A stretch of 19,197 nt of DNA from a virus (lineage: Duplodnaviria > Heunggongvirae > Uroviricota > Caudoviricetes): positions 1 through 19,197 of the IMG/VR virus record IMGVR_UViG_2667527789_000020; one strand, written 5' to 3'. Positions 1-17,770 of this stretch are shown here, piece after piece. The notes under the pieces were generated by a model. That model saw only the letters and a program-made list of their open reading frames with translations. It did not search any database and had not been told where the DNA came from. Both the position numbers and the translations under genes were made by a program. How positions within the stretch are numbered: position 1 is the first letter of the stretch; each line of letters begins with the position of its first letter.

Positions 1-1020
1 CTACTTGCTGACCACAAGTGGCAAATCCAGTGTCGGCGTGATTTTTGTTTTACGATCATAAATCAACACCTGATTTTCTGTTTTATGTCCACTGAAAATC
101 TGTTTGTCGCGACTGCTTCCTTCGTAATCTGATATTCCTTTGGCTTTTATGTCATGGAAATTGCACCCAAACGGGACGCCGGATTTTTTCTCGGCTGCGT
201 GTTTAGCCTGGTTCCACCAGTTGTTTAGCGTTTTAGCTATGACCTTCCCGCCCTTGGTTGTGTTGATCACATATTCACATGTGCCTGAAGATACATTTCT
301 GGCTAACTGGATCGCGGTTCGTAATCGTGGAGACCATTCCTTGATTTGTTTGGTGCCGGTCTTGTTTTGCTCAATGTAGATTCCTTTATCCATAATATCC
401 TGCCATTTCAGCTCGAGCACATCACCGAGTCTTGCCGCACAAAGATAGGATATCTCCATTGCAATGCGTAACTGTGGTATTGCTTCCGCATATATCGCCG
501 CATACTGTTCATCTGTGATGTAAACAGTGCGGGCTTTAAGCGTAAATTTCCTGACTCCTTTGCATGGGTTATTCTTCACATATCCACGCTCATATCCCCA
601 CCCGTATACACGACTGAGACTTGCCAGTTCATGGTTTGCCTGGGTCTTGCTCTCAATCCCCCGTTTATCCATGAAAATTCTTACCTGCTCAATTTTTACA
701 TTATCAGCCAGTACTTTTCCGAAGACTGCCAGTAACGCCCTCTGATGTTGCCGATAATCTTTTTGGGTTCTGGGGGCCAGTTCTGTAAATGCGGGGGAAT
801 CCATAAACATGTGCCATAATTTAGCGACGGTCATTATGTTGTGGCGTTTTGCTTTTTCCAGTTCATAATTCTGCCAGACTTTAGCTATGCTGGTTTCCCG
901 CACTCTTCCTAGCCCTATAGTTTTTGTGCTTCCTTCGGGTTTCCATACGTAACTGTAACCATTCGATCTAACACGTGGCGGTAGTGCATTATCTTTTTTG
1001 TTTTTTCTTGGTCTTCCCAT
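1..1020 (-). CDS. int: Tyrosine recombinase, lambda-Int family phage integrase (339 aa)
   Basis: Complete ORF. N-terminus MGRPRKNKKD...PPRVRSNGYSY...GLGRVRE parallels the lambda Int arm-binding domain. C-terminal half carries the catalytic Arg (AARLGD), an HDIK box and GHKTE...VLIYDR containing the nucleophilic Tyr. Sits at the prophage end followed by an overlapping xis-like gene. Confidence 0.93.
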   Translation of the reverse strand: MGRPRKNKKDNALPPRVRSNGYSYVWKPEGSTKTIGLGRVRETSIAKVWQNYELEKAKRHNIMTVAKLWHMFMDSPAFTELAPRTQKDYRQHQRALLAVFGKVLADNVKIEQVRIFMDKRGIESKTQANHELASLSRVYGWGYERGYVKNNPCKGVRKFTLKARTVYITDEQYAAIYAEAIPQLRIAMEISYLCAARLGDVLELKWQDIMDKGIYIEQNKTGTKQIKEWSPRLRTAIQLARNVSSGTCEYVINTTKGGKVIAKTLNNWWNQAKHAAEKKSGVPFGCNFHDIKAKGISDYEGSSRDKQIFSGHKTENQVLIYDRKTKITPTLDLPLVVSK

Positions 1021-1240
1021 TGTTCAGCGCCTCAAAATCGGGGTCAGCAGAAACCAGTTCAGATACTTTCGGTATCGCAGTCAGTCCGCGCGGGACATCA
1101 CTGCGAAGAACTATTGGTTCGTTTTTAGGACCGGGTACAAATGGGATACCGTGCAACCTTAACTGTTGTTGCTGTTTTGTATACCGTTCGTATCTCGTGA
1201 TCTCTTGAATTTCTGCTGGCGATAGAGTTAATTCGTACAT
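989..1240 (-). CDS. Putative excisionase / recombination directionality factor (83 aa)
   Basis: ATG at 1240; small basic protein with a K/R-rich C-terminus whose 3' end overlaps the int start by 32 bp, the classic xis-int arrangement. No recognisable similarity to lambda Xis, so the call rests on position only. Confidence 0.45.
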   Translation of the reverse strand: MYELTLSPAEIQEITRYERYTKQQQQLRLHGIPFVPGPKNEPIVLRSDVPRGLTAIPKVSELVSADPDFEALNNGKTKKKQKR

Positions 1241-1306
1241 GTGGTCACGTGCCTTACAGCATGACCGCCGCCACTATAGCTTGTGGGCGGCGATATGGGT
1301 TGAACA

Positions 1307-3745
1307 TTAAAAATCAGCCTGATTCGGGAACAGTTTTTGCCAGATAGCTGAAACGTATTTTGCCTGGTAACGCGCATCGTGCAGGGCATTATGGCGTTCA
1401 CCCTCAAATGTGATGACACTTCGAGCATCGAAATCCATCACCAGCCCCAGGGCAACAATCGTTCTTACATCACGATCATTGGTGTAACGCCACGGGCAGG
1501 GGATCTCCTGCCGTTCATATGAACGGCGTAAAATCACGTTGTCGAAGTTGGCTCCATTTCCCCAGACCTGAACAAAAAACTCACCGGAGTTTTCGTCTAT
1601 AAATTCCCGTAATTGTAAAAGCGCATCATCAAGCGGTATTCGATCAGCTAAAATGGCGGCACGGGCTTCGCCAGAGCGTTGAAGCCACCATTCGATGGTG
1701 CTTATGTCTACAGTGCCGCCACATGTACCCATATCAATTATTTTGCTGAATTCAGGCCCCTGCTCTCCGGTTTGTGGATCGAAAAATACAGCGCCTATTG
1801 AGGCTATTGGTGCGTCAGGATTTTTGCCCATTGTTTCAAGGTCAATCATCAGATGGTGCCACAACCTGCTGGTGGATGTGATTTCACGATGACCGTTCAC
1901 CTTAATTAAGGGATTTGCTGTCTCGCCTGTTTCATTATTGCCATTGGCATGTTGATCGCCTTCGGTGCACTCCTTGTTCGGGAGTCCGGCACTTTCCATT
2001 TCCTCCGGATCTTTTTCCCGGGCTTCATCCTGGCTTTCTTCGTTGAATGTCTCCTGGTAGGTTGCGTCCCCCATCACTGCGCCACAATCAGGGCAGTTAC
2101 CACCACCAGTCTGATTGCATGCGGTACAAACTTTTTCCTCTTCCTGTTGCACTACTGGTTCAGGTTGTTTCGTTTCTGGCTCGTTTTGTAACGCATTTGG
2201 GCTGTTTTGTTCCGCTTTCTGACCGTTCTGTTCCGTTTCTTGCTGGTTCTGGTTCACAGAATCGCAGGTTTCAATCCCCTTAACCCATTTCGAATCATTC
2301 GGGTCGCTAATCCCTTCAACAAACTCACCACGAGAAGCGGCAAGCAATTTGTCGGCATCTGGTCGACTGATGTCTGCTGCCTCCATAATTTTATTTACTT
2401 CTTCAGCAGTAACTTTTACCTGTGACTTGTCATCCAGCGGCTGCGGGTCCTGATGATGTTCAACTGTATCCGCTGCCATTGTTTCAGCCGTTGCCTGTTC
2501 ATCTGCCATTGCGCCAGATGGTTGCGGGTTTTCTTCATCATTTTTTTCTTCTTCTGTTTTGCACTCAGCAGCCAGTCCGCCGTTAATTTCTTCCAGGATA
2601 TCTTTTTCCGGTGTATGCCGGGCAGCCATGAGCGTTTCAGCTGTGGGATTCTCGTGATCAGTTTCTGTCAGGTTGGCATTGATATACCCCTGAAGGCGTC
2701 CCGGGTAGTGATAAAACTCAGGGTGGGCGCTCCGGATAAGTGCAAAAATAGCTGCGCGGGAATAGTCCAGGATACCAGGGGTTGCGCGAAGTGCTGCGGA
2801 CCATTCCCTGAACGGACTTTCTTTTTTCAGGACGATTTCTTTTGCGCGACGATAAACGCTCACGGGTATTTCATAAATATTAAAATCCATCGGAAGTGTG
2901 GCTGCTGCAGCCTCCACATCCAGAGTATCGAGGGTGTGTACTAAGTCAGGATTACGATCGGTTTTATTTCCGCCACCGGCATTTGCACCGGAAGCCGTGC
3001 GGGTGATGCGAGAAACACGATTTCCTTTCATCCACTCTTTTGTCAGCAGACCTCGATCGGTATAGTCAGCGTCCAGGTATGCTTCGAAAAAAGCAGTCAT
3101 TAACCCCAGACTGGAATTAACGGGATTAGGGAAAACTTTGTCTGTGTCGCGTACCAGTTTGTGAAGGTCGCGAATCTCCAGCGGGTCGAGCAGCTTTGTG
3201 TTGTGGGAAATAGCCAGGGTAGTAACAGCCGGCAGTTCTTCAGCTCGTGCGATATGTAATGCCTGAAGTTCTTCCCGTGAAACGTGCGTTACCGGTTTTT
3301 CGCTGCCATGTTGCGCAAGCCAGCGAATGGGCAGTTCCTGACCGGAAATCGGCAGGAGCATATTATCCTCAATCTCAGCCATGTCTTCGCCATTGACGTT
3401 GGTATTGTCAGTGCTGGCTGGTTTGTCCTGAACTGAGGGGGAAGGCGCTATAAATATCATTGTGATGCCATCTTCCCCGCCTTTTTCATAGCGGTTGCAG
3501 AATTCGGTATCAAACACGCCTTCCGGTGGAAGGTCATTCACAACGGGGAAATGGACGCGGACAGGTTTTTTGAAATCATCAGCGTCGTAGCCTGCCTCGT
3601 CCATTGCAACAACGCACCGTGAGATGGCAACAGATAATTTTTTTGCTGTAGTCCAGTAAAAACCCCCTTTAATCCCAAGGCGTTTTCTGACCTTGTCATT
3701 TTTTGCTTCGCAATATAGCGAAAATTCTTCTTTATCAGTGCTCAT
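1307..3745 (-). CDS. Large prophage exonuclease (812 aa): RecE-N-terminal-like region, CxxC-x8-CxxC zinc ribbon, C-terminal DEDDh (DnaQ-like) 3'-5' exonuclease domain
   Basis: ATG at 3745 preceded by GAGG with 7-nt spacer. C-terminal domain shows Exo I (MIDLETMG), Exo II (VWGNGANFDNVIL) and Exo III (HNALHDARYQAKY) motifs. Central Cys cluster CTACNQTGGGNCPDCG. N-terminal part (NTNVNGEDM.EIE.NMLLPISGQELPIRWLAQHGSEKPVTHVSR) resembles, from memory, the dispensable N-terminal region of Rac RecE. Confidence 0.8.
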   Translation of the reverse strand: MSTDKEEFSLYCEAKNDKVRKRLGIKGGFYWTTAKKLSVAISRCVVAMDEAGYDADDFKKPVRVHFPVVNDLPPEGVFDTEFCNRYEKGGEDGITMIFIAPSPSVQDKPASTDNTNVNGEDMAEIEDNMLLPISGQELPIRWLAQHGSEKPVTHVSREELQALHIARAEELPAVTTLAISHNTKLLDPLEIRDLHKLVRDTDKVFPNPVNSSLGLMTAFFEAYLDADYTDRGLLTKEWMKGNRVSRITRTASGANAGGGNKTDRNPDLVHTLDTLDVEAAAATLPMDFNIYEIPVSVYRRAKEIVLKKESPFREWSAALRATPGILDYSRAAIFALIRSAHPEFYHYPGRLQGYINANLTETDHENPTAETLMAARHTPEKDILEEINGGLAAECKTEEEKNDEENPQPSGAMADEQATAETMAADTVEHHQDPQPLDDKSQVKVTAEEVNKIMEAADISRPDADKLLAASRGEFVEGISDPNDSKWVKGIETCDSVNQNQQETEQNGQKAEQNSPNALQNEPETKQPEPVVQQEEEKVCTACNQTGGGNCPDCGAVMGDATYQETFNEESQDEAREKDPEEMESAGLPNKECTEGDQHANGNNETGETANPLIKVNGHREITSTSRLWHHLMIDLETMGKNPDAPIASIGAVFFDPQTGEQGPEFSKIIDMGTCGGTVDISTIEWWLQRSGEARAAILADRIPLDDALLQLREFIDENSGEFFVQVWGNGANFDNVILRRSYERQEIPCPWRYTNDRDVRTIVALGLVMDFDARSVITFEGERHNALHDARYQAKYVSAIWQKLFPNQADF

Positions 3746-3837
3746 GGATAAACCTCATAACTATTTTAAGGTTGTACGAACCCCTGCCATTGCTGGCATG
3801 CTTAATCAACGGGTATGGCGTTAATATGGCTGGTGGA

Positions 3838-4026
3838 TTATCCAGCCGGTATTTCGTTATTCAGGTACAGCGATACTTTTTTTAACGGGAGGCATTCGCC
3901 AGAAATTTTTTGCTCGTCTCTTGCACGGAGGCATGATTCTTTACTGGCATAAATTCCGGTAATCACATTCTGTGGCTCACCCGTTATAAGAAAAACAGTC
4001 ATTACCAGTGCAAATGCAGAAGTCAC
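3838..4026 (-). CDS. Small hypothetical protein with a hydrophobic N-terminal segment (YdfD-like position after dicB)
   Basis: GTG at 4026 overlaps the dicB-like stop (GTGA); alternative in-frame ATG at 4002. Hydrophobic stretch FALVMTVFLITG. Same strand and tightly coupled within the leftward operon. Identity unknown. Confidence 0.35.
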   Translation of the reverse strand: MTSAFALVMTVFLITGEPQNVITGIYASKESCLRARDEQKISGECLPLKKVSLYLNNEIPAG

Positions 4027-4211
4027 TGCTGCCCCCCGAAAATACCAAGTTTAAGAAGGGCAATTCTGGAGAGTATGGAATTATCATTGAGAAGATAAGG
4101 CTCATATTTTCTCATCTTAATGGCATCTTCAGTAAACTCCCGGTTACTGAGCAGAATACCAATATCAAAACACCCTTCAGACGTATTAACGTTTGGTAAT
4201 AACGTTTCCAT
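4023..4211 (-). CDS. dicB: Cell-division inhibitor DicB homolog (62 aa)
   Basis: METLLPNVNTSEGCFDIGILLSNREFTEDAI... closely matches the N-terminal half of E. coli Qin DicB as I recall it (MKTLLPNVNTSEGCFEIG...FTEDAI), and the length is identical. ATG at 4211 preceded by GAGGA with a 7-nt spacer. Confidence 0.75.
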   Translation of the reverse strand: METLLPNVNTSEGCFDIGILLSNREFTEDAIKMRKYEPYLLNDNSILSRIALLKLGIFGGQQ

Positions 4212-4221
4212 TATCGCGTCC

Positions 4222-4806
4222 TCAACAATGAATTTTTAGTAATTGCTCCACAGTCATATTTTTAATTGCGCTCCGGTTTACAAGAGTCCAGCCTTGTTTC
4301 TCCAGATAAAACTGGAAGGTATCCAGGGTGCAGACCATTGCACCATCAGGAACGGTTTCAGTGAATTTGATATTGCCGTGTTCGTCGAGACGGATAACCA
4401 GGGTACGTCCGTCCCCGTGAATCATTTTGTCGGGAGACGGGGCGTTATTCTGGCGCAGTTCTTTCTCCATGCGATCGAACTCAGCGATGTAGGCTTCTTT
4501 AAATGCAGCGGCTTTTTTGCCGGTGAAGCCCATCACCAGGAAAACGAAGCCGTTTTTGGTGATTTGGTACATAGGGAGTTTGCGCCCGGTTGAGTCGGTA
4601 TATTCACTGGGCGAAAAATTTCGCTCAGTGAATTCTGCTGAACAGTCTAGACGTGAAATTTTTGCCAGTACATCTTTGTGTGGTTTCCGGAAATACTCGG
4701 CAACAGCTAAAGAGGATGTAACAGCACGCCCATTGGCGATAGTAATTTCAGGGTGAGAAAGGGCAGGGATAGTAGCCATGATGGCAGCCTCCATGATGAA
4801 TTTCAT
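4222..4806 (-). CDS. Rha-family phage regulatory protein (antirepressor-like)
   Basis: Core ITIANGRAVTSSLAVAEYFRKPHKDVLAKISRL...MYQITKNGFVFLVMGFTGKKAAAFKEAYIAEF is typical of the Phage_pRha domain. The six-frame ORF extends to 5073 but the first ~90 codons are compositionally non-protein-like and contain a terminator-like hairpin. Likely start is ATG at 4806 (SD-like GGTGGTGAG upstream) or ATG at 4779 (GGAGG, 8-nt spacer). Confidence 0.7.
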   Translation of the reverse strand: MKFIMEAAIMATIPALSHPEITIANGRAVTSSLAVAEYFRKPHKDVLAKISRLDCSAEFTERNFSPSEYTDSTGRKLPMYQITKNGFVFLVMGFTGKKAAAFKEAYIAEFDRMEKELRQNNAPSPDKMIHGDGRTLVIRLDEHGNIKFTETVPDGAMVCTLDTFQFYLEKQGWTLVNRSAIKNMTVEQLLKIHC

Positions 4807-4943
4807 TAACTCACCACCGGAGGTAGCAATCTCATGGGTGGTGAGACGCACAGGGTTGCTACAACCGGTCATCATGGAACCCGGCCAGCCTTGCGGCTGC
4901 CCTGCACGCCCCACCATAATCTGAATGTGGCTGTGCATTACGC

Positions 4944-4968
4944 ATAAAAAAACCGCCTGAGCGCGGTT
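4944..4968 (-). terminator. Candidate Rho-independent terminator on the minus strand
   Basis: Minus-strand RNA would form AACCGC / GCGGTT stem (6 bp, 6-nt loop) followed by a 7-U run (plus-strand A7 at 4946-4952). Lies between the DicF-like element and the Rha start. Confidence 0.4.
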
Positions 4969-5264
4969 ATGCGCCATGATGAACATCGGGGTAGCAATCC
5001 CGGCACCCGCTTTATGAGGTGCAGGTGCACTATAATTCCACCCGTTCTGGTTTTCAATAGCTACATTCAACATTTTCTCTTACCTTTCATCACCGAAGTG
5101 AACTTTGTCGATGCAGTGCCTGGTGCCTCCAGGTGACGTTAACCAGTTAACAATTAACGCCGGAATACAGAAGTATGCCCGTTACGCCCCGTAAAAGACC
5201 ACTTTACGGTTTTAACTGTTCCGCGTGCGCTTAGCCGCATTCACCGCATCACAAAATTCACTTT

Positions 5265-5322
5265 AAAAAGGGCGGACATCAGAAAGCTAATAAACTGATG
5301 CCGCCAAAGGTACCACTGCCAT
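5265..5322 (-). ncRNA. dicF: DicF-like small RNA candidate with intrinsic terminator
   Basis: Minus-strand transcript ...ACCUUUGGCGGCAUCAG-UUUAUUAGCUUU-CUGAUGUCCGCC-CUUUUU: an 11-bp GC-rich stem (one bulge), 12-nt loop and U5 tail. The UUUGGCGG.AUCAGUUU and CCGCCCUUUUU segments resemble E. coli DicF as I recall it. Lies in the same operon and upstream of the dicB homolog, as in Qin. The 5' end is not defined. Confidence 0.45.
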
Positions 5323-5590
5323 TGAAACATGGAGATGTTGTGGCGGGGTTGTCACTCAGGCATATGGTCAACCTGACAACCCGGTGTCCTCAATGAGGGG
5401 AAAAGAAATAAAAACCCCCAGCCATATTTACCGCCGCGCCATTTCGCGGATTGCCACAACCGGAAGCACACGGTCGAAGAAATCTAACGACAAGCCTTCT
5501 AAGGGAAAGAGCTTCGCCGTGCGCTTTCGTGTTATACCCTGACTTTTCAGGGTAAATTAACCAGTGGCAACCTGTTTTTACTGGTGCTAA

Positions 5591-5743
5591 TCAGTTAGTG
5601 TTTCTGGCTAACCAGCGACGCGCGCCAGCTTCGGTTTTAAACTTTTTACTTTTGGTATACGTCATCGCGGTAAACGTGCCGTCCTGGTTAGGGAACACAC
5701 CACATACCAGAGATTCGTTGTTGCCAAGATTGAGCGTATCCAT
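5591..5743 (-). CDS. Small protein (50 aa), YdfA/YdaF-like (DUF1391-like) first gene of the leftward operon
   Basis: ATG at 5743 preceded by GAGG with a 5-nt spacer (TGAGGTCAACATG). The six-frame ORF extends to 5797, but that upstream start has no RBS. Product MDTLNLGNNESLVCGVFPNQDGTFTAMTYTKSKKFKTEAGARRWLARNTN. Family assignment is from position and vague recall only. Confidence 0.5.
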   Translation of the reverse strand: MDTLNLGNNESLVCGVFPNQDGTFTAMTYTKSKKFKTEAGARRWLARNTN

Positions 5744-5923
5744 GTTGACCTCATTTCCCCTTAACGCCGGGGTAGCGGAACAAAAAACCTGCTGCATAGT
5801 TAAACGTAATCCCCGCCGTCATGTTCATACGCCTCAGGCTGGCTACTTAACCCCTGACCACTGCCGGGTAACTCGAAGTATTGCCCTGCGTTCTGTGGGG
5901 CGGGGTGGGTTTATGGATACAAT

Positions 5924-6006
5924 TTACAAATTAAAATTTAACTGGTCAACATGTTTATTATTAAATTTGTAATTGCGAGCTGTTGCATTAGTCCCAAAAT
6001 GGGACT
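5924..6006. promoter_or_regulatory. Candidate operator/promoter region (OL-like, divergent leftward promoter and higBA promoter)
   Basis: AT-rich. Inverted repeat TTACAAATT (5924-5932) / AATTTGTAA (5964-5972), and a second perfect palindrome AGTCCCA-aaa-TGGGACT (5990-6006) immediately upstream of higB. The TTACAAAT half-site recurs in the repressor/cro intergenic region. Confidence 0.4.
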
Positions 6007-6017
6007 ACTATACAGTT

Positions 6018-6320
6018 ATGAAGATTATCTCAGTTAAAACACTCAGGGATTTTTGGGCGGAGAATCCTGATGCAGAACAACCGCTAAGGGCATGGGTGGA
6101 TGAGGCGGCAAAAGCTGACTGGAAAAGCCCAGCAGACATTAAGGCACAATACCGAACGGCCAGTATATTGAAAAACCGGCGCGTGGTATTCAACATAAAA
6201 GGTAATCATTACCGTTTAATTGTTGCAATTGCGTATCAGCGAGGATGGGTATTTGTTAAATTCATCGGAAACCACAAGGAATACGATGCTATTGATGCTG
6301 ATACCATCGAACTGGAGTAA
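6018..6320 (+). CDS. higB: Type II toxin HigB (RelE/ParE superfamily mRNA interferase), 100 aa
   Basis: ...VVFNIKGNHYRLIVAIAYQRGWVFVKFIGNHKEYD parallels E. coli HigB (VFNVGGNELRVVAMV...HKEYD). Directly followed by an HTH antitoxin gene 2 bp downstream. The six-frame ORF starts at a TTG at 5973; ATG 6018 is preferred. Confidence 0.85.
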   Translation: MKIISVKTLRDFWAENPDAEQPLRAWVDEAAKADWKSPADIKAQYRTASILKNRRVVFNIKGNHYRLIVAIAYQRGWVFVKFIGNHKEYDAIDADTIELE

Positions 6321-6322
6321 GC

Positions 6323-6682
6323 ATGAACATCAAACCTATTCGTACAGAGCAAGATTATGAAGCCGCGTTGCGTGCTGTTGAACCCATGTTCGACAATGAG
6401 CCCGAAATTGACACGCCTGAGGGGGATTTTTTTGAGGTGATGTGTTTGCTAATAGAGGAATATGAAAAAAAACATTATCCCATTGAGCCACCATCCCCAA
6501 TTGAAGCTATAAGATTTCGCATGGAACAGCAGGGGCTGACTGTGAAAGATTTGGAACCCGCAATTGGGAAAAAAAATCGGGTTTATGAGGTGTTGAATGG
6601 TACCAGAAGCCTTACGTTACCAATGATTCGCCGTCTTCATAATCAATTTGGTATCCCCCTGGAAAGCCTGGTTGGATTATAA
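6323..6682 (+). CDS. higA: Antitoxin HigA (XRE-family HTH), 119 aa
   Basis: Acidic N-terminal part and C-terminal HTH (LTVKDLEPAIGKKNRVYEVLNGTRSLTLPMIRRLHNQFGIPLESLV). Toxin-first gene order with a 2-bp spacing is typical of higBA. Confidence 0.85.
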   Translation: MNIKPIRTEQDYEAALRAVEPMFDNEPEIDTPEGDFFEVMCLLIEEYEKKHYPIEPPSPIEAIRFRMEQQGLTVKDLEPAIGKKNRVYEVLNGTRSLTLPMIRRLHNQFGIPLESLVGL

Positions 6683-6697
6683 AATCTGCTAGTCATT

Positions 6698-6746
6698 TGC
6701 CTGATGCTCGTTCCAGAAAAGGAATGCATCAGGCAGTTTTGTTTTT
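6698..6746 (+). terminator. Rho-independent terminator after higA (convergent with the repressor 3' end)
   Basis: TGCCTGATGC (6698-6707) pairs with GCATCAGGCA (6726-6735), with an inner TTCC/GGAA stem, followed by GTTTTGTTTTT. Overlaps the stop codon of the minus-strand repressor gene. Confidence 0.6.
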
Positions 6747-7121
6747 CTGCCGCAGTAACTCTTCAAGTTTCCGTTTATAGAAATCGCGTTTTTGCTCCAT
6801 ATCACGAATGATCTGCTCTGCGTCGCTTTGAGGTAACTCATCTAAAAGCGATATGATTTTTCGTTGTTGTTCTGTAAGTTGCGGTTGGTTGTCATTACTG
6901 GATACAGCCATTTTATCGCCGAGAGTTTCTTCTTCCATAAAGAACCAATGGACGGGATGTTGTGAGAGCTCTGCTAATTTTTCCAGTTTATCCATTCTTG
7001 GCATCACGCCTTTCAACCAACCTTGCACGGATTGGGGTTTTACACCAAGACGTCTTCCCAGCTCTGACTGGTTTATATTCAATTCCTGCAACACCTGCTG
7101 AAGGCGTTTTACAAAGATCAT
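6729..7121 (-). CDS. DicA-like prophage repressor (N-terminal XRE HTH, C-terminal coiled-coil), 130 aa
   Basis: HTH LQQVLQELNINQSELGRRLGVKPQSVQGWLKG, then a charged helical tail (EQQRKIISLLDELPQSDAEQIIRDMEQKRDFYKRKLEELLRQ) with the same architecture as DicA. No S24 peptidase domain. ATG at 7121 preferred (GAGGGG, 5-nt spacer) over the in-frame GTG at 7127. Divergent from the cro-like gene. Confidence 0.8.
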   Translation of the reverse strand: MIFVKRLQQVLQELNINQSELGRRLGVKPQSVQGWLKGVMPRMDKLEKLAELSQHPVHWFFMEEETLGDKMAVSSNDNQPQLTEQQRKIISLLDELPQSDAEQIIRDMEQKRDFYKRKLEELLRQKNKTA

Positions 7122-7176
7122 CACCACCCCTCGTAAACTAGTTCCGCGATCCTACAGAAAAAATTGATAAGTGGCA

Positions 7177-7214
7177 TTACAAATAGAAGTTGAAATTTAA
7201 ATTTAAATTTGTAA
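7177..7214. promoter_or_regulatory. Candidate operator (OR-like) in the repressor/cro divergent promoter region
   Basis: Inverted repeat TTACAAAT (7177-7184) / ATTTGTAA (7207-7214) flanking three tandem AAATTT units. Lies in the 126-bp intergenic space between the repressor start and the ydaS-like start. Confidence 0.4.
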
Positions 7215-7247
7215 TCATCGGTGTCATCGTAAAGTTCGGAGGGAAAC

Positions 7248-7508
7248 ATGCAAAAAAGTACTCAAGTGAAAATCCTGTCAATAATGAGCCAATCAGAATT
7301 AGGGCGTCGTCTTGGTAAAACACCGCAAACCATAAGTGGGTGGTTTAAAAAACGAGTGCCAGCGGAGGAGGTTATACCAGCATGTGAGGCGCTTGACTGG
7401 GGAGTAACTCCGCATGAATTGCGCCCTGATAAATACCCTAATCCAACCGATGGTTTACCTGTTGAGTATCAGGCTAACGCACAAGCAGCGGCGGGAGTTG
7501 ATTCATGA
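7248..7508 (+). CDS. ydaS: Cro-like HTH protein, YdaS family (86 aa)
   Basis: SQSELGRRLGKTPQTISGWFKKRVPAEEVIPACEALDWGVTPHELRPDKYP matches the YdaS/Cro-like pattern (LG.TPQ..S.W...VPAE.V...E......HELRPD.YP). ATG preceded by GGAGGG. Divergent from the repressor. Confidence 0.7.
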   Translation: MQKSTQVKILSIMSQSELGRRLGKTPQTISGWFKKRVPAEEVIPACEALDWGVTPHELRPDKYPNPTDGLPVEYQANAQAAAGVDS

Positions 7509-7942
7509 AAATCAAGCATGAGCACATCCGCATGGCGATGAATGCGTGGCTGCTTTATCCGAGGGTAGGGCGCAAAAAAATCGCTGATGATATAGCGACA
7601 GCATATTTTGAGCTTGAAATGACTTATCCACCAATGCATGACACCTCTACGACAGAGGGTATTGGATTGAATATACAAAATATTTTTCGCTGGCTTGAAA
7701 AGGATACGCCTGATGCTGTTGAAAAAATTCAGGCACTAATTCCGGCTATCCTGACTGTTCTTCCGCGTGAACTGCGTTATCACCTCAGTATTTTTGACAC
7801 TGTTGAGCGCCGTGCATTACTGGCGGCGCAGGAAGCGTTGAGCACGGCAATTGATGCACATGATGATGCTGTCCAGGCCGTTTACCGGAAAGCGTATTTC
7901 AGCGACGGCGGGTCATCCGGCGAGTCTGTTGTGGTGCATTGA
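7505..7942 (+). CDS. ydaT: YdaT-family protein (CII-like regulator / putative toxin YdaT), 145 aa
   Basis: Begins MKIKHEHI; C-terminal LIPAILTVLPRELRYHLSIFDTVERRALLAAQEALSTAIDAHDDAVQAVYRKAYFSDGGSSGESVVVH matches Rac YdaT as I recall it. ATGA overlap with the ydaS-like stop. Confidence 0.7.
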   Translation: MKIKHEHIRMAMNAWLLYPRVGRKKIADDIATAYFELEMTYPPMHDTSTTEGIGLNIQNIFRWLEKDTPDAVEKIQALIPAILTVLPRELRYHLSIFDTVERRALLAAQEALSTAIDAHDDAVQAVYRKAYFSDGGSSGESVVVH

Positions 7943-8028
7943 TATTTATGCCAGCCCCCTGCTGATTCTGTTGATTGGGGAATCACAGAATATCACCAGA
8001 GGATGGTTCGTCACAAGATGAGGCAATT

Positions 8029-9039
8029 ATGGCCGCATTACCATACATGCAACTGTACATAGCTGATTACCTAGCTGACACCATGCATTTGTCCGCAGAG
8101 GAGCACGGTGCGTATTTGTTGCTGATGTTCAATTACTGGCAAACAGGGAAACCAATACCTAAAAACAGGCTGGCAAAAATTTCCCGTCTGACTAACGAGC
8201 GATGGGCTGATGTGGAACCATCCTTGCGGGAGTTTTTTTGCGATAACGGCGATGAATGGGTGCATCTTCGGATTGAGGAAGATCTGGCATCAGTCAGGGA
8301 AAAATTAACCAAAAAATCAGCCGCCGGAAAAGCATCTGTTCAGGCCAGAAGAAGCAGAAAGGAAGCATATGTTCAAACAAAACAAGAGAGAGATTTAACA
8401 GGCGTTCAAACAAATGTTGGTGTTGTGTTTGAACATGACGCAAACACAAAAGCAACTAATAAAGATACAGATCTAAAAGAATTAAACCCCACACATAACG
8501 TGCGTGAACGCGAGAGTATTCCGACCAGTGAGTCGCATGGTGCGCCGTTGCAGACAGCCGAACCTGAATACCTGGACGGCCTGAGCGAACCGATCGGGAA
8601 ATTTTCGATGACCACTGTCTGGCAGCCGTCGCCGGATTTTCGACAACGGGCAGCAGTGTGGGGTATGGCTCTGCCTGAGCCGGAATTTACACCTGCTGAG
8701 CTTGCCGCATTCCGGGATTACTGGATGGCGGAGGGGAAGGTTTTCACACAGGTTCAGTGGGAGCAGAAATTTGCCCGCCACGTGCAGCACGTCAGGGCAC
8801 AGGTAAAACCAGTCAGCAAGGGGGGAAGCCATGCAGCATCAGGTGGCACGGCATCACGGGCAATTCAGGAAATCCGGGCAGCACGCGAACAGTGGGAACG
8901 AGACAACGGATTTATCAGCAACGGAAACGGCCTGGAAGCTGTGGGAGCTTATGGGGGAGGTGTATTCGAACCGCTGGACTCAGAAGAACGGGGCCGCACC
9001 TTCGAAGCTCTGGATTGCCCAGATTGGTGCGATGACTGA
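8029..9039 (+). CDS. Replication initiation protein, YdaU-like (DUF1376 N-terminal domain, DnaT-like C-terminal region)
   Basis: ATG at 8029 preceded by GAGG with a 5-nt spacer; the six-frame ORF starts at a TTG at 7975. N-terminus YMQLYIADYLADTMHLSAEEHGAYLLLMFNYWQTG is the DUF1376 signature. C-terminal half (SMTTVWQPSPDFRQRAAVWG...FTPAELAAFRDYW) resembles DnaT-like domains. Confidence 0.7.
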   Translation: MAALPYMQLYIADYLADTMHLSAEEHGAYLLLMFNYWQTGKPIPKNRLAKISRLTNERWADVEPSLREFFCDNGDEWVHLRIEEDLASVREKLTKKSAAGKASVQARRSRKEAYVQTKQERDLTGVQTNVGVVFEHDANTKATNKDTDLKELNPTHNVRERESIPTSESHGAPLQTAEPEYLDGLSEPIGKFSMTTVWQPSPDFRQRAAVWGMALPEPEFTPAELAAFRDYWMAEGKVFTQVQWEQKFARHVQHVRAQVKPVSKGGSHAASGGTASRAIQEIRAAREQWERDNGFISNGNGLEAVGAYGGGVFEPLDSEERGRTFEALDCPDWCDD

Positions 9040-9493
9040 ACAGCAAATCCGGCAGGTCTGTCGTCAGTGCATGGACCGCTGCCGGGCGGGTGAAACGTGG
9101 CCCCCGGACCTGGCTGAGTTTGTTGCGCTGATTTCGGAGAGTGGGGCAAATCCATTTGGTCTTACGGTGGATGCCGTGATGGAAGAGTACCGGCGCTGGC
9201 GCAATGAATCCTGGCGATACGACGGGAGTGATAAATACCCGTGGCCACAGCCTGTGCTGTACCACATCTGCCTCGAAATGCGTACCAGAGGGATTGAGCG
9301 CCAGATGACGCAGGGTGAGTTAAAACGACTTGCGGAACGGCAACTGACGAAATGGGCAAAGCATGTTGGTAACGGGATGAGTGTTCCGCCAGTGCGACGA
9401 CAACTGGAAGGGGCGAAACACCCGAAAGGGCCAACGCCAATTGAATGGCTGAAACAGGAATACGAACGCCGGAAGGCAGCTGGTTTTATTTGA
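8831..9493 (+). CDS. Lambda P-like replication protein (helicase loader family)
   Basis: PPDLAEFVALISESGANPFGLTVDAVMEEYRRWRNE...DKYPWPQPVLYHICLEMRTRG...QGELKRLAERQL parallels lambda P (PSPGQFVAWCREE...GLPNVSELVDMVYEYCRKRG...ESYPWKSNAHYWL...TDAELRRKAADEL). ATG at 8831 has a strong SD (AAGGGGGGAAG) but overlaps the upstream gene by 209 bp in another frame. Alternative starts are 8951 and 9032. Confidence 0.6.
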   Translation: MQHQVARHHGQFRKSGQHANSGNETTDLSATETAWKLWELMGEVYSNRWTQKNGAAPSKLWIAQIGAMTEQQIRQVCRQCMDRCRAGETWPPDLAEFVALISESGANPFGLTVDAVMEEYRRWRNESWRYDGSDKYPWPQPVLYHICLEMRTRGIERQMTQGELKRLAERQLTKWAKHVGNGMSVPPVRRQLEGAKHPKGPTPIEWLKQEYERRKAAGFI

Positions 9494-9526
9494 ATCTGAG
9501 AAGCGATTTTGTAGGAGGAAATTTTA

Positions 9527-10288
9527 ATGGAAACCGTTTTTGACGCACTGAAAGCAATGGGAAAAGCCAGCTCTGTTGGACTGGCTGAGCGGCTTGATAT
9601 CAGTCGTGAAGAGGTTCTCAACGAACTGTGGGAACTCAAAAGAAATGGCGTTGTTGATAAAGCGGGTCACATCTGGTTTCTGGCTGGCGAAGGTGAATCC
9701 GGGGTAACCGAAGAGCAGCCAGAACAGTCTGAAGTACCGGATGTGCTGACCGGGGAGGTCGAACAAAAAGTTACCGCAGACATGATGATTGAGTTTATCG
9801 GTCAGGAGGGGGCTAAAACGTGTGAGGAACTGGCGGATAAGTTCGGTGTTAGCATTCGCAAGGTTGCTTCCACGTTGGCGGTGGTAACCGCAACGGGACG
9901 CCTGGCACGCGTAAATCAGAACGGTAAATTTCGTTACTGCATGCCGGGCGATAATTTACCAGCAGAGCCGAAAGCCGTGCCGGTAACGGAAAATGATGGT
10001 AAGGCCTTTCCTCAGCCAGCAGGTGTTGCGTTACCAGTACAGGAATCTGCAACACAGGAAGATATTAAAACAGAAACAGTGGCGGACATTGTGCAGTCGT
10101 TGCCATCGTTTACCGAAACGCAAGCAGATGAGCTGATTTTTCTGTCCCTGTGCAGGGCAAACCTGGCGCTGCGCAGGGCGAAAAGTGATGTTCAGAAGTG
10201 GGAGCGAGTCTGTGCCGCGCTGCGGGAACTGAACAAACACAGGGATATTCTCCGGGATATTACCGCCACCAGAGAGCTGCTGCGGTGA
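9527..10288 (+). CDS. Hypothetical protein with two tandem winged-helix-like modules (253 aa)
   Basis: ATG preceded by AGGAGG. Two internally similar segments ([30 protein letters not shown] and [32 protein letters not shown]) look like wHTH units. Function unknown. Confidence 0.65.
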
Positions 10289-10320
10289 GTGGCTGGAAGA
10301 AGTGGCGCTGGGCGGAAATT

Positions 10321-10602
10321 ATGATACTCCGGCAGTGTGCGGGAACGATGACAGTCGAAAGCATCGGCAGTCTGATTGGCCGTAGTGGGGCTGCCGTCAG
10401 GACGAAAGCGCGGGAACTGGGTATCTGCATGATGTTACGGGGTGATTATCACCAGTCAGCCAAATGTTCACAGCGTGATATTGAGCTGGCGCGGCAACTG
10501 CATCAGCGTGGCGTACCCCGACGGGAAATTGCCGAAAAGTTTGGGATGAAGTTGGGCGCAGTGAATAACTACGTTTATTTCGACAGGAGGGTTCAGGCGT
10601 GA
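10321..10602 (+). CDS. Small HTH-domain protein
   Basis: Two HTH-like segments (TVESIGSLIGRSGAAVRTKARELGI and VPRREIAEKFGMKLGAVNNYV). Start is uncertain: GTG 10285 overlapping the upstream stop, ATG 10321 or ATG 10342, all with weak RBS. Confidence 0.5.
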   Translation: MILRQCAGTMTVESIGSLIGRSGAAVRTKARELGICMMLRGDYHQSAKCSQRDIELARQLHQRGVPRREIAEKFGMKLGAVNNYVYFDRRVQA

Positions 10603-10904
10603 GGGTGAGAATTTATATCGCCGGTCCGATGACGGGATATGAAAATTTCAACCGTGAGGCGTTTCACAGGGCGGAAGAAGCACTGAAACGGGAAGGGCAT
10701 ACCGTTTTAAACCCGGCAGTACTTCCGGACGGACTGACACAGCCACACTACATGGATATTTGCATGGCGATGATACGCTGCGTGGATGCGATTTACATGC
10801 TGAAAGGCTGGCAGCGGTCGGCAGGCGCTAAGGCAGAACTGGCACTGGCGGAGAAACTGGGACATGCGGTTATTTTCCAGGAGGCAACCAGTGAGAAAAA
10901 TTAA
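10599..10904 (+). CDS. DUF4406-family protein (nucleoside 2-deoxyribosyltransferase-like fold), 101 aa
   Basis: GTG start overlapping the upstream stop (GTGA), preceded by AGGAGG. N-terminal MRVRIYIAGPMTGYENFNREAF is the characteristic DUF4406 signature. Confidence 0.7.
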   Translation: MRVRIYIAGPMTGYENFNREAFHRAEEALKREGHTVLNPAVLPDGLTQPHYMDICMAMIRCVDAIYMLKGWQRSAGAKAELALAEKLGHAVIFQEATSEKN

Positions 10905-11541
10905 TTATCAGACGCTACGTGAGATAGCAAAACTGGCAACCCAGGGCGAATGGGTCGCATTCATTTCGCCGGGCACTGATACATATGCGGTGCATACGCC
11001 GGGGGATGAACGTTGCGGAGACATTATCAAATGGCCTGGCTTTGATGACCAGAAAAATGCAGAGAACAACGCAGAATTTATTGCAGCTTTCAACCCTGAA
11101 GTAGTACAGGCACTGCTGGATGAACGGGAAGCCCAAAGCAAACGTATTGCAGAGCTGGAAGCTAATCTTGTGGCGCTGGCGGCGGAGAATGCACTTGCTC
11201 GTAAAGCAGTTCAGGCATTCTGCGATGTTGTTGGCGACAACACCGAGGTTATCTGCGAGGAGGTTGGGAGAGATGGCGTTCTGGTTATTTTGGAGGCCAT
11301 GAAGGCAACAGGAAATATGCCAGCCACCGATGCTTTCCTGTCTGAAGTGCGGGCGCTGGGGGTGGATGCTGCTATAGAAGCTGCAAAAAATCTGGTGGCC
11401 CAAGAATATGAGTATAAGGATTTCAAAGCGGCGCAGAGTGATTGCTGTATGCACCCTGGTTCAGACCTGATAGGGAAGGTTGAAATGACTGAGTGGTTAG
11501 TTGACTTTGCTGCCCAGCTTCGCAAAGGAGTTCAGTCATGA
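10891..11541 (+). CDS. ead/Ea22-like family protein
   Basis: GTG start (AGGAGG, 6-nt spacer) giving VRKINYQTLREIAKLATQGEW..., the Ea22-like N-terminal motif, followed by a coiled-coil segment (AQSKRIAELEANLVALAAENALARKAV). The six-frame ORF begins upstream at 10864 inside the DUF4406 gene. Confidence 0.6.
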   Translation: MRKINYQTLREIAKLATQGEWVAFISPGTDTYAVHTPGDERCGDIIKWPGFDDQKNAENNAEFIAAFNPEVVQALLDEREAQSKRIAELEANLVALAAENALARKAVQAFCDVVGDNTEVICEEVGRDGVLVILEAMKATGNMPATDAFLSEVRALGVDAAIEAAKNLVAQEYEYKDFKAAQSDCCMHPGSDLIGKVEMTEWLVDFAAQLRKGVQS

Positions 11542-11867
11542 GAGCTTCAATTAGTTATGTCGACGATTGCCACCTAAGCGTGCGTGTTGATGAAATTGTG
11601 TCATCCGTGCCAACTTTTCCGACAAAAAATGCAGCCGTTAATGCAGGCGCGCCATTCGGATGGAGGACGGCAGTTCGTATTGAGCGTCGATTCGAAAACG
11701 TTTGGGTGGTAGGTAAGAAATGCTTCCAAAGCGATCGCTCTGCGGGGCTTAATTTTGAAGCATATCGATTCCCGTTCCTCCGATGGGAGAAAGAGGGCGG
11801 GATTACAAAATGCCCGATTCTTTCCGTGCGCAGATTCAAGCAGGAGGCAACCAGTGAGCAAGATTGA
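11538..11867 (+). CDS. Hypothetical protein (109 aa)
   Basis: ATGA overlap with the upstream stop. Its C-terminus (...KQEATSEQD) is encoded by the same 18-bp junction sequence that forms the C-terminus of the DUF4406 gene (...FQEATSEKN), which suggests a genuine gene at a module joint. Confidence 0.4.
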   Translation: MRASISYVDDCHLSVRVDEIVSSVPTFPTKNAAVNAGAPFGWRTAVRIERRFENVWVVGKKCFQSDRSAGLNFEAYRFPFLRWEKEGGITKCPILSVRRFKQEATSEQD

Positions 11868-12198
11868 CTATCAGGTATTGCGTGAGGCAGCACAAAACTA
11901 TCGGTCGATGCTGGCGTGGTATCAGGAGAAACCAGACAGTCCAAACGCTGAGCAGGATTGTGATGCAGCTTTGGCTGCGTTTAAGCGTGAAATCCGTCAT
12001 CGTGAAGTGGGTATTATCGCTGATTTGCTGGATGAACTGGAGGAAGCAAAACAGCGTATCGACGAGCAGGAGTCCCGCATAGTGAAGTTACCAGAACCAT
12101 TCAAGCTGGCTAAATCATCAAGTGGATTAACGTACTACTACGCTGATGAGGTCAATGCCGCACTGACTGCTGCTGGTATTCGCATAGAAGGAGAGTGA
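11854..12198 (+). CDS. Ea22-like N-terminal-motif protein (114 aa)
   Basis: GTG start within the repeated junction. VSKIDYQVLREAAQNY parallels VRKINYQTLREIAKLA of the upstream Ea22-like gene, followed by a coiled-coil segment (LDELEEAKQRIDEQESRIVKL). Confidence 0.5.
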   Translation: MSKIDYQVLREAAQNYRSMLAWYQEKPDSPNAEQDCDAALAAFKREIRHREVGIIADLLDELEEAKQRIDEQESRIVKLPEPFKLAKSSSGLTYYYADEVNAALTAAGIRIEGE

Positions 12199-12199
12199 G

Positions 12200-12553
12200 A
12201 TGACCACTATTACCAAAGAGCGACTGCAATGGCTGGCTAACATTTCTGGCCGCGATGACATTGACGATATAGACGGCGGTGAAATTCGTGAGCTGGCGCT
12301 TATCGCGCTGGCATCGCTGGAAGCGAAGCCTGTAGCTTCATGTATTATTGAAGATGGGGGCATGTGTGTTGACGGGTTCGGTGAGTATGTTGGTCACTCG
12401 CTGCCTGATGGAACGCACCAGCTTTACGCCGCCCCGCCAGTGCCTAGTAAGTTGCCGCGTGAATACAGAAACGGTTGGCCTCTTGCATATAGTGATTATG
12501 CTGAAGGCTGGAACGACTGCCGCGAAGCCATGCTTCAGGGAGATAAATCATGA
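12200..12553 (+). CDS. Hypothetical protein (117 aa)
   Basis: ATG preceded by GGAGAG, 1 bp after the upstream stop; the downstream gene starts with an ATGA overlap. No recognisable domain. Confidence 0.55.
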   Translation: MTTITKERLQWLANISGRDDIDDIDGGEIRELALIALASLEAKPVASCIIEDGGMCVDGFGEYVGHSLPDGTHQLYAAPPVPSKLPREYRNGWPLAYSDYAEGWNDCREAMLQGDKS

Positions 12554-12912
12554 TTAATCGTATCAAGCTGGAGCACATCCTCGAATATGCCAGGCAGCAG
12601 AAGCATACTGGTCAGCATTGTAAAATTCCACCAGGGGATATGGTTGAAATCATGGAGATTGCCATGCGCAAGGCTGGCAATTCTCCGGTAACTCCGGATG
12701 GTTGGATAAGCTGTAGTGAGCGAATGCCGAATACCAAAACAGCCGTTCTTGTTGCCGTGGAGTTTGACAGGAAAGGTGACTGGCGAATGAAATGGGCTAC
12801 TTACATCCCGGGGCATCATGACGCTAATGATGGGTGGATAATTCCTGGTGCGTCGTGGAAACCGTCACACTGGATGCCGCTACCAGAACCGCCGAAGGAG
12901 GTGCGCCAATGA
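12550..12912 (+). CDS. DUF551-domain protein (120 aa)
   Basis: C-terminal DGWISCSERMPNT...VLVAV...W......W...SHWMPLPEPP is the characteristic DUF551 signature of lambdoid nin-region proteins. Confidence 0.65.
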   Translation: MINRIKLEHILEYARQQKHTGQHCKIPPGDMVEIMEIAMRKAGNSPVTPDGWISCSERMPNTKTAVLVAVEFDRKGDWRMKWATYIPGHHDANDGWIIPGASWKPSHWMPLPEPPKEVRQ

Positions 12913-13138
12913 GCTGGCCTGAGGCCTTCTCAAATGTTGGTATTGCAATGGCGCTGGTGGTGTATTCGATTTGCCGCTGGGGATAAAAACGGTTTGCGGG
13001 GAAAGAAGAGTTAAGTAGAATTGCTGCGGGTGCCTGAGGCTGTCTGCCTCAGGCATGAACACCAAAAGGCAGATAGAGAAAGCCCCAGTTAACATTACGC
13101 GTCCTGTAAGACGCTCAACATTAATCTGAGGCATATGG

Positions 13139-14263
13139 ATGCGGATGAAAGAATTAAATAAATTCAGAGTGATAGACCTCTTTTGTGGGGCAGGTGGATT
13201 ATCTTATGGTTTTCTTCATGGAGAGATGTCTGACTACTTTGAAAGTATCCTTGCTATTGATAATAATGCTGCAGCTATAAATACCTACAATGCCAATTTT
13301 GGTTTGCATGGAGTTCAGGCAAATATTGAGGAGTGGGCATCCAGCAATACTGTTCCTGAGGCTGATGTGGTCATAGGTGGCCCCCCGTGTCAGGGATTCA
13401 GTTTATTGAATAAGAATCGTTATGGTGATCACCGAAGAGCATTGTGGGAGCCTTATATGGATGTCATTGAGCGTTCAAGGGCTTGCATGTTCGTCATGGA
13501 AAATGTCCCCGGATTGCTGATAAGCGATGAGTTTGCGGACATTACGTTTAGAGCGAAATCCATGGGCTTTATTCTGCTTAATCCAATGGTGTTGAATACT
13601 GCTGACTATGGAGTACCTCAGACAAGAAAACGAACGATAGCAATCGGTATCAAACGAGAACTCTTCGATGAGCATAGTATTCCGGCGTTCCCGCCAGCAC
13701 CAACGCATCGTTCCCCTGATAAGGATGTCGCTTTGCCTGAATGGGTCTGTACGCGTGATGCAATTGGTGACTTACCTGCTCCTGTTGGAACTGATATTCG
13801 TAATGAACTTCCTCCGCTGAACTTACATTTTGGGCGTAATCCCACACCTGTTTCTCTGGAGCGATATAAAGCGGTTCCACCAGGAGGTAACCGTTTCGAT
13901 TTACAGAAAAAAAGACCTGATATAACCCCGGCGTGCTGGCTAAAAAAGAAATCTGGAGGGACCGATTTGTTTGGACGTCTGTGGTGGGACAGACCTTCAG
14001 TAACGATTCGTACTGAGTTTTTCAAACCGGAGAAAGGGCGATATTTACATCCGGAAGAGGATCGGCCAATAACTCATCGTGAGGCAGCGAGATTAATGTC
14101 TTTTCCTGATAATTTCATTTTTACCGGTTCAAAAACTGAGATTGCAAAGCAGATCGGGAATGCTGTTCCACCGCTATTTGCGGCAAAAATCGCACAATAT
14201 GTGTATGGAGTTTTGCAGGGACGGTATAAGAATAACATCAGTAAGAATAGTCAAGCAGCCTGA
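13139..14263 (+). CDS. DNA (cytosine-5)-methyltransferase, modification subunit of a Type II R-M system (374 aa)
   Basis: Motif I DLFCGAGG (FxGxGG), motif IV GGPPCQGFS (catalytic PC), motif VI ENV, motif X-like QIGNAVPPLFAAKIA. ATG preceded by GAGG with a 7-nt spacer. Visibly more AT-rich than the flanking phage genes. Confidence 0.9.
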   Translation: MRMKELNKFRVIDLFCGAGGLSYGFLHGEMSDYFESILAIDNNAAAINTYNANFGLHGVQANIEEWASSNTVPEADVVIGGPPCQGFSLLNKNRYGDHRRALWEPYMDVIERSRACMFVMENVPGLLISDEFADITFRAKSMGFILLNPMVLNTADYGVPQTRKRTIAIGIKRELFDEHSIPAFPPAPTHRSPDKDVALPEWVCTRDAIGDLPAPVGTDIRNELPPLNLHFGRNPTPVSLERYKAVPPGGNRFDLQKKRPDITPACWLKKKSGGTDLFGRLWWDRPSVTIRTEFFKPEKGRYLHPEEDRPITHREAARLMSFPDNFIFTGSKTEIAKQIGNAVPPLFAAKIAQYVYGVLQGRYKNNISKNSQAA

Positions 14264-14276
14264 AGGAAATCCAGAA

Positions 14277-15154: not shown

Positions 15155-15226
15155 CATCTCTATGTAAATAGAGTCTGTCATATTTTAACTGTGATGGCAC
15201 GTCATTGACTTCAGTACATTTTTACT

Positions 15227-15252
15227 AACCTGCTTCGCGGGTTTTGTTTTTT
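15227..15252 (+). terminator. Rho-independent terminator downstream of the R-M cassette
   Basis: AACCTGC-ttc-GCGGGTT stem (7 bp with one G-U pair) followed by TTGTTTTTT. A weaker hairpin (GACA.CTCTA / TAGAG..TGTC) lies directly after the endonuclease stop at 15153-15179. Confidence 0.55.
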
Positions 15253-15324
15253 CCTGGCATTCTGGTTTACAATCCACACGCCAGCCTGAACAACTGGCAC
15301 CTGCTGCGCCAGCAGAGACAACCG

Positions 15325-15597: not shown

Positions 15598-15598
15598 C

Positions 15599-17708: not shown

Positions 17709-17770
17709 ATCGCGTATGTTTCGTATAAATCTGATATTTTGCCGATTTTGTACACGATGGCAAAGTAAGA

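Follow-up and report, generated by a model that had tools for sequence, protein, structure and literature searches.

What is a toxin–antitoxin (TA) operon doing in the immunity region of a lambdoid prophage, where it is transcribed head-on toward the repressor gene? The question is raised by a 19,197-nucleotide (nt) stretch of DNA (positions 1 to 19,197 of IMG/VR record IMGVR_UViG_2667527789_000020; hereafter the window), which is the early region of a lambdoid Escherichia coli prophage and is 99.2–99.5 per cent identical over ∼11.5 kb to a prophage adjoining yccA in E. coli strain 48. A sequence-only reading had placed a HigB toxin and a HigA antitoxin between the repressor and the leftward early promoter, on the opposite strand, and open reading frames (ORFs) for both lie at that place, between the leftward promoter/operator region (5921–5972) and the 3' end of the repressor gene. 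The account favored here, and held with considerable confidence, is that the pair constitutes an active two-gene type II HigBA system of the K-12 YgjN/YgjM (PF09907) kind, carried as cargo and expressed from its own promoter in the lysogen.

The HigB and HigA genes

Family membership is established for both proteins, domain search being positive for each. HigB matches the full length of the Pfam HigB_toxin profile (positions 1–74 of 74; 4.8e-33, 113.7 bits where the cut-off is 27) and can be aligned end to end with the solved HigB proteins of E. coli K-12 and Shigella (E 3e-7), while HigA matches K-12 HigA (5IFG_B; E 3e-9 over residues 6–112) and the Pfam helix-turn-helix (HTH) family HTH_3 (27.1 bits, cut-off 23). 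NCBIfam gave no match for either protein, and Pfam, PHROGs and PADLOC did. The AlphaFold2 model of HigB, a strand followed by three helices and three strands, finds as its seven best Protein Data Bank (PDB) matches the HigB chains of E. coli and Shigella HigBA complexes, with template-modeling (TM) scores of 0.65–0.70, and then YoeB, ParE and RelE. The HigB/RelE-fold similarity on which the sequence-only reading had staked its call is therefore present in both sequence and model, and the RefSeq product name is already 'type II toxin-antitoxin system HigB family toxin'.

Identity to K-12 HigB is nevertheless only ∼28 per cent, which sets the HigB of the window in a distinct subfamily that plasmids and other Enterobacterales also carry. 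Across 24 homologues the residues R66, K81, H86, Y89 and D90 are invariant; in the wider pattern FN-x2-GN, R66, K81 and H86-K-E-Y89-D90 all positions are invariant or nearly so, and the HKEYD string is common to K-12 HigB.

The operon is toxin-first. The higB stop codon (6318–6320) is separated by 2 nt from the higA ATG (6323), and a Shine–Dalgarno sequence for higA (GGAG) occupies 6314–6317. The higB ATG at 6018 is the start used by RefSeq for a 99.5 per cent identical locus. A longer frame opening on TTG (115 amino acids, 5973–6320) was rejected as a real gene: it would contain the operator palindrome described below, the homologues are all 100 amino acids long, and RefSeq uses the ATG.

Both genes are, as judged from substitution patterns, under strong purifying selection. 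The ratio of non-synonymous to synonymous substitution rates (dN/dS) among E. coli variants is 0–0.08 for higB and 0.02–0.06 for higA, and in a Salmonella copy both genes are intact and synonymous sites are saturated (dS), yet the proteins remain 80 and 88 per cent identical. Neither reading frame is broken in any copy examined, nor in any of 40 evenly sampled annotated matches.

Several observations weigh against an active module with a role in the lysogen. The predicted higBA promoter is weak, matching the consensus at 7 of 12 positions, so that a promoter scan did not report it, and there is no Shine–Dalgarno sequence before higB. Confidence in the AlphaFold2 model is moderate (mean predicted local distance difference test score, pLDDT, of 67). 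A literature search on the RefSeq accession and on higBA in prophages of O26 and other Shiga-toxin-producing E. coli returned nothing specific to this module. The defensive precedents considered below have additional parts, either a chaperone or a peptidase fusion together with a third gene, and defence activity is therefore not simply transferable to a bare higBA pair; to our knowledge, many chromosomal HigBA pairs are without a demonstrated phenotype. Taken with the loss of one autoregulatory palindrome (see below), the weak promoter and the missing ribosome-binding sequence might suggest a passenger that is decayed or silent, left over from a TA system and kept only by hitch-hiking with the repressor gene. 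Such a remnant would not be expected to keep its frames open in every copy, to hold dN/dS well below 0.1 through synonymous saturation between E. coli and Salmonella, or to retain the conserved motif residues, and we regard this explanation as highly improbable.

Mobility, linkage and the repressor-proximal slot

Pairs with an 80–89 per cent identical HigB and a HigA of 119–121 amino acids were found in unrelated surroundings of several kinds: beside ParA, H-NS, Hok/Gef or PsiA on plasmids (IncFII-like and conjugative), among metabolic genes of the Klebsiella pneumoniae chromosome, in other Enterobacteriaceae between ybaB and recR, and in a second E. coli phage-like early region. When the flanks are aligned, homology of the cassette starts at ∼5983 and ends right after the higA stop codon (∼6685). 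To judge from this distribution, higBA is a mobile cassette.

Within E. coli, higBA and this repressor/operator set co-occur one to one. Among 5,426 complete genomes, the higBA segment taken by itself is present in 148 (149 places), the repressor-plus-operator segment taken by itself is also present in 148 (149 places), and a 1.8-kb span covering the two is present in 148. Shiga-toxin-producing strains of O26, O103 and O111 make up many of these 148 genomes. The block common to the variants runs from ∼5600 to ∼7740, which is the classical immunity region, and is set in otherwise different backbones. In a Salmonella prophage whose repressor is 74 per cent identical, higBA is likewise convergent and the OL arrangement is the same.

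It is here that a second reading has to be weighed, namely that higBA is chiefly an addiction module, acting by post-segregational killing to stabilize the prophage or, more precisely, the immunity cassette, and is not a form of anti-phage defence. The linkage to the repressor and operators is complete in E. coli (148/148) and persists in Salmonella at 74–88 per cent protein identity; the ends of the shared block imply that the TA genes move with the immunity genes between phage backbones; and close relatives lie in plasmid maintenance and leading regions. There is also a precedent for such an effect in the immunity-region TA genes paaR2-paaA2-parE2 of the cryptic prophage CP-933P, which stabilize a mini-F plasmid (PMC8630535). 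Tight linkage could equally reflect recent common ancestry of a successful immunity module, however, and the addiction and defence roles are not mutually exclusive. The slot that higBA occupies also holds, in relatives, nuclease-type cargo or cargo matching defence models. On this evidence a chiefly addictive role is a serious possibility, though one to which we give less than even weight.

The contents of that slot vary among phages. Phage Tritos lacks the cassette, its DUF1391 gene standing directly beside cI, and relative to this phage the word 'inserted', applied to higBA by the sequence-only reading, is apt; it does not extend to the immunity type itself, of which no TA-less copy was found among the 5,426 complete E. 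coli genomes. Salmonella relatives with 71–72 per cent identical repressors carry other cargo. In S. Javiana (positions 4454–7256 of the locus) the slot holds a 63-amino-acid PaaA2-like gene for which no ParE partner was called, a gene with a TM2 domain, and a pair that PADLOC matches to RmrT and RmrA (8.5e-54 and 3.7e-141), and in S. diarizonae (positions 4506–8353) a 424-amino-acid PLD-family protein with a PIN/PhdYeFM pair further along.

Phages BP-4795 and H-19B and many Stx1a phages carry a 42 per cent identical HigB after cI and in the same orientation as cI. There it belongs to a trio of HigB (95 amino acids), HigA (218 amino acids; 43 per cent identical over residues 6–117) and a SecB-like gene (PADLOC PD-T4-9_C, 3e-11). 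The trio lies at 3501–4842 of the BP-4795 locus; the same region of H-19B is unannotated, and in most Stx1a phage records the three genes are unannotated or called 'hypothetical'. From its architecture we infer that the BP-4795 trio is the published HigBAC system, which lies downstream of cI in a lambdoid prophage of E. coli NT1F31 and defends against lambda-vir (bioRxiv 10.1101/2024.02.24.581848). HigBAC resembles the module of the window in pairing a PF09907 HigB with a HigA homologue in the variable slot beside the immunity repressor, at the position of lambda rexAB. It differs in being co-oriented with cI, in the ∼100-amino-acid extension of its HigA and in the SecB-like chaperone gene that follows, whereas the pair described here lacks both extension and chaperone, converges on the repressor gene and has its own terminator. 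Membership among toxin-antitoxin-chaperone (TAC) systems was rejected on the same grounds: there is no third gene, and HigA has 119 amino acids against 218 in BP-4795.

With a predicted promoter and a terminator of its own, a position between conserved phage genes and absence from related phages, higBA has the marks of a self-contained moron in the repressor-proximal (rex) slot.

Predicted promoters, candidate operators and the terminator

The palindromes upstream of higBA (5924–6006) appear to be two separate things, a phage operator motif and a HigA-type palindrome that belongs to the cassette (Table 1). The sequence-only reading had described the promoter region of the module as sharing palindromes with the candidate repressor operators. 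This is borne out for the motif at 5924–5972, which recurs in the repressor–cro region and lies outside the core of the higBA promoter, but not for the palindrome at 5990–6006 inside the higBA promoter, which is not shared.

The phage motif is 18 nt long (TTACAAATTWAAATTTAA) and has four copies in the window where 0.04 are expected, in two inverted pairs at 5924–5941 (+) and 5955–5972 (-) and at 7189–7206 (+) and 7197–7214 (-), and nowhere else. OL1 is identical at 17 of 18 positions to the inverted copy at 7197–7214 and is kept in the E. coli variants and in Salmonella, and the same operator core is present at both OL and OR sites in diverged E. coli and Salmonella copies. The four copies are best read as the OR- and OL-type operators of the phage switch. 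The predicted PL-like promoter, which the first pair brackets and OL1 overlaps, scores 9/12 in a consensus scan, points at the DUF1391/ydfA-like gene and is equivalent in position to lambda PL. For the TA-less Salmonella relatives, OL-type operators beyond the cargo were also sought, and the sequences are too divergent for confident comparison.

The second palindrome (AGTCCCAAAATGGGACT) is unique in the window, with 0.07 expected. Each of the 17 cassette copies examined, from unrelated contexts, has a TCCC-N5-GGGA palindrome 26–27 nt ahead of the ATG, and because this palindrome is conserved in every context and lies in the promoter spacer, the site at 5990–6006 is probably the HigA operator. 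Copies on plasmids, in chromosomes and in phages have the promoter pattern TTGCAT-17-TAnTAT equally far from the ATG (its form in plasmids is TTGCAT-17-TATTAT). Transcription would then start near 6018, and the higBA mRNA would be leaderless or nearly so.

Table 1. Features of the immunity region and its surroundings in the window, in window coordinates.
Feature	Position	Strand	Remarks
Rha/Ash-type regulator gene	5073-4222	-	
DUF1391/ydfA-like gene	5743-5591	-	
AT-rich control region	5920-6017		
PL-like leftward early promoter, predicted	5921-5949	-	-35 TTGACC 5949-5944, 17-nt spacer, -10 TAAATT 5926-5921
OL1, candidate phage operator	5924-5941	+	TTACAAATTAAAATTTAA; overlaps -10 and spacer of PL-like promoter
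OL2, candidate phage operator	5955-5972	-	TTACAAATTTAATAATAA on minus strand; between -35 elements of PL-like and higBA promoters
higBA promoter, predicted	5983-6011	+	-35 TTGCAT 5983-5988, 17-nt spacer, -10 TACTAT 6006-6011
HigA operator, probable	5990-6006		Perfect palindrome AGTCCCA-AAA-TGGGACT; in higBA promoter spacer
higB	6018-6320	+	From ATG; 100-amino-acid RelE-superfamily toxin, Pfam PF09907 HigB_toxin
higA	6323-6682	+	119-amino-acid antitoxin; N-terminal HigB-binding-type region, C-terminal XRE helix-turn-helix
higBA intrinsic terminator	6697-6746	+	16-bp bulged hairpin 6697-6736, U-tract 6737-6746; overlaps last codons and stop of repressor gene
Immunity repressor gene	7121-6729	-	DicA-like HTH, 130 amino acids, no peptidase domain; Pfam HTH_3
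Second control region	7122-7247		
OR-type operators, candidate	7177-7214		Inverted pair 7177-7194 and 7197-7214; between repressor and cro-like genes, over predicted divergent promoters
cro-like gene, YdaS family	7248-7508	+	Right edge of immunity switch
cII-like YdaT gene	7505-7942	+	
O-like replication gene	7975-9039	+	

At its other end the operon runs into the repressor gene. The long hairpin terminator overlapping the repressor stop codon, as described in the sequence-only reading, is found there: the repressor TGA (6731–6729) lies inside the right arm of the hairpin, and the end given for the module, 6746, is the end of the U-tract. On the plus strand the hairpin has a folding free energy of -23.5 kcal/mol (z -3.6), and none of 200 shuffled sequences folds as well; TTTTGTTTTT follows directly at 6737–6746, and the U-tract is complementary to the final codons of the repressor gene, which are rich in Lys/Asn. 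A simple terminator scan reported no sites, since an 18-nt outer loop containing an inner stem breaks its loop-size rule, and the hairpin is revealed by folding. On the minus strand no U-tract follows the hairpin, which thus should serve as a one-way terminator for higBA, and a bidirectional terminator was ruled out. With a one-way terminator embedded in the 3' end of the repressor gene, the two transcription units must therefore overlap at their 3' ends.

Diverged E. coli copies retain the hairpin; in the other contexts of the cassette it is not conserved, and it was rejected as part of the mobile unit. No ORF lies in the 46 nt between the higA (6682) and repressor (6729) stop codons. In the Salmonella copy this spacer is 148 nt long, and immediately after the higA stop (positions 4500–4550 of that locus) it holds a tandem repeat, GAAGACCC, in four copies of which the last is imperfect, followed by a different hairpin-plus-T-run terminator.

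The arrangement of operators raises a third reading, in which the TA genes are wired into the lysis–lysogeny switch: OL2 would replace a distal HigA operator, the repressor and/or Cro would set higBA expression, and convergent transcription would add antisense control. In seven independent non-immunity contexts and in phage BP-4795 the cassette has a pair of HigA-type palindromes, one at about -26 and one at about -55. The five copies linked to immunity (those of the window, of three E. coli variants and of Salmonella) all keep the proximal palindrome only, and at the distal position, ∼10 nt upstream of the -35 element, they have OL2. In the window the PL-like and higBA promoters stand back to back, their -35 elements 33 nt apart, with OL2 between the two; the repressor transcript, in which no U-tract follows the hairpin, may continue antisense into higA. 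Control of this general kind has been demonstrated for the TA genes of CP-933P, which respond to CI-, Cro- and CII-like regulators (PMC8630535). The loss of the distal palindrome may, however, simply mark a recombination junction inherited once, in which case the five copies represent one event and not five, and the center of OL2, near -54 from the predicted start, fits no established geometry for activation or repression. The palindrome swap supports, in a comparative sense, the regulatory coupling hinted at in the sequence-only reading and may equally be a single inherited junction. Wiring into the switch is, on balance, unlikely, and it is similarly doubtful that HigB activity reports or enforces the immunity state, as it would if, for example, higBA were expressed only while the repressor is bound and released on collapse of immunity or loss of the prophage.

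The repressor gene is divergent from the cro/YdaS- and cII/YdaT-like genes, and the gene order as a whole corresponds to lambdoid immunity regions of the Rac/Qin/CP-933P kind (PMC8630535). The repressor scores 49.9 bits against the NCBIfam DicA subfamily, under the cut-off of 101. A scan for the repressor in contigs representing one genome per species found none, and its homologues came from the protein database. Among the E. coli variants the repressor is 98–100 per cent identical, and the neighboring Cro-like protein is just 84–86 per cent identical, with 90 versus 86 amino acids (window 7248–7508), which suggests that a recombination breakpoint lies immediately to the right of the operators or that evolution there is faster.

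Farther from the switch, Rfam matches identify a C4 antisense RNA (4834–4921, minus strand, 77.9 bits) and an isrK RNA (4946–5022, minus strand, 64.7 bits), both within the 5' part of a mechanically called ORF (4222–5073) whose product has Phage_ASH and Phage_pRha domains. We take this arrangement to resemble the RNA control of an antirepressor-type gene in P1/P7 immI and Gifsy IsrK. Antirepressor control of the C4/isrK type would fit a 130-amino-acid repressor that lacks a self-cleaving peptidase domain. A sok antitoxin RNA (13028–13208, plus strand) scores 61 bits against a gathering score of 59, and Hok/Gef is annotated at the matching place in a near-identical prophage; this locus would be a second TA system, of type I, in the same prophage.

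Relation to known systems and a possible mechanism

One of the closest known systems is K-12 HigBA (YgjN/YgjM; PDB 5IFG and 6KML; PF09907), which has been shown by experiment to encode a translation-dependent mRNA interferase that is neutralized and autoregulated by HigA and activated through Lon (PMC2814082; PMC11980606). The two systems are alike in toxin and antitoxin families, by sequence and predicted fold, and K-12 HigBA is likewise toxin-first, with a C-terminal XRE helix-turn-helix in HigA and palindromic operator(s) in its promoter (PMC2814082). They differ in that K-12 HigBA occupies a chromosomal locus, whereas the present module sits in a prophage immunity region and retains a single candidate operator palindrome.

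Another of these systems is PD-lambda-2, an experimentally validated abortive-infection system in which the toxic component is B and not the HigB-like A (Vassallo et al. 2022, PMC9519451). PADLOC identifies the HigB of the window as PD-Lambda-2_A at 1.1e-40, and the N-terminal third of component B is HigA-like. Component B, however, combines a HigA-like HTH with a peptidase domain at its C terminus, and a third gene, C, is required for defence (PMC9519451), whereas HigA covers positions 1–119 of the 402-position profile of component B and shows no peptidase domain in Pfam. Membership in PD-lambda-2 was rejected, as the peptidase domain and gene C are both absent at the locus. Having no peptidase domain, third gene or chaperone, the module is neither PD-lambda-2 nor TAC, and is, by its gene content, a plain two-gene relative of both.

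The paaR2-paaA2-parE2 genes of CP-933P are comparable in location: they form a type II TA system within a lambdoid immunity region whose switch is of the YdaS (Cro)/YdaT (CII) type and whose repressor has no peptidase domain. There the toxin is ParE, the antitoxin has no DNA-binding domain, and the TA genes are co-transcribed with the repressor and controlled by it. The pair in the window, in contrast, has its own HTH antitoxin, probable operator, predicted promoter and terminator and lies on the strand opposite to the repressor gene; with toxin and antitoxin of other families and the operon so oriented, membership in the paaR2-paaA2-parE2 type was rejected.

Lambda rexAB and BTP1 bstA, genes expressed in lysogeny beside the repressor gene, exclude other phages, and rexAB, which is co-transcribed with cI, is the classical cargo of this slot. 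Their proteins and mechanisms are unrelated to those of higBA.

The toxicity of HigB and the biological role of the pair, like the assignment of proteins to operators, we infer along the following lines. By homology, HigB would be a ribosome-dependent mRNA endonuclease, which HigA would bind and neutralize while repressing the operon through the palindrome at 5990–6006. Because its predicted promoter is its own, higBA is expected to be on in the lysogen. If HigA were no longer replenished, whether because a superinfecting phage had shut off the host or because the prophage had been lost, free HigB would shut down translation, and the outcome would be abortive infection and/or the killing of cured cells. 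The cargo found in neighboring phages and the example of HigBAC favor defence, and the absolute linkage and the plasmid relatives favor addiction.

Since TA and defence cargo in this slot has already been published in the form of RexAB, paaR2-paaA2-parE2 and HigBAC, the module is mostly an ordinary one. If active, it would be one more TA pair among the defence or addiction cargo found next to the repressor genes of lambdoid phages. Non-O157 Shiga-toxin-producing E. coli carry it widely, and there it could influence which phages are able to superinfect, Stx phages included, as well as the stability of the prophage that carries it. What goes beyond routine annotation is the promoter architecture alone, with a phage operator where relatives have a second antitoxin operator, and with convergent transcription units that overlap. 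In this respect the locus offers a simple and testable case of a mobile TA cassette that may be becoming wired into the regulatory switch of its host element.

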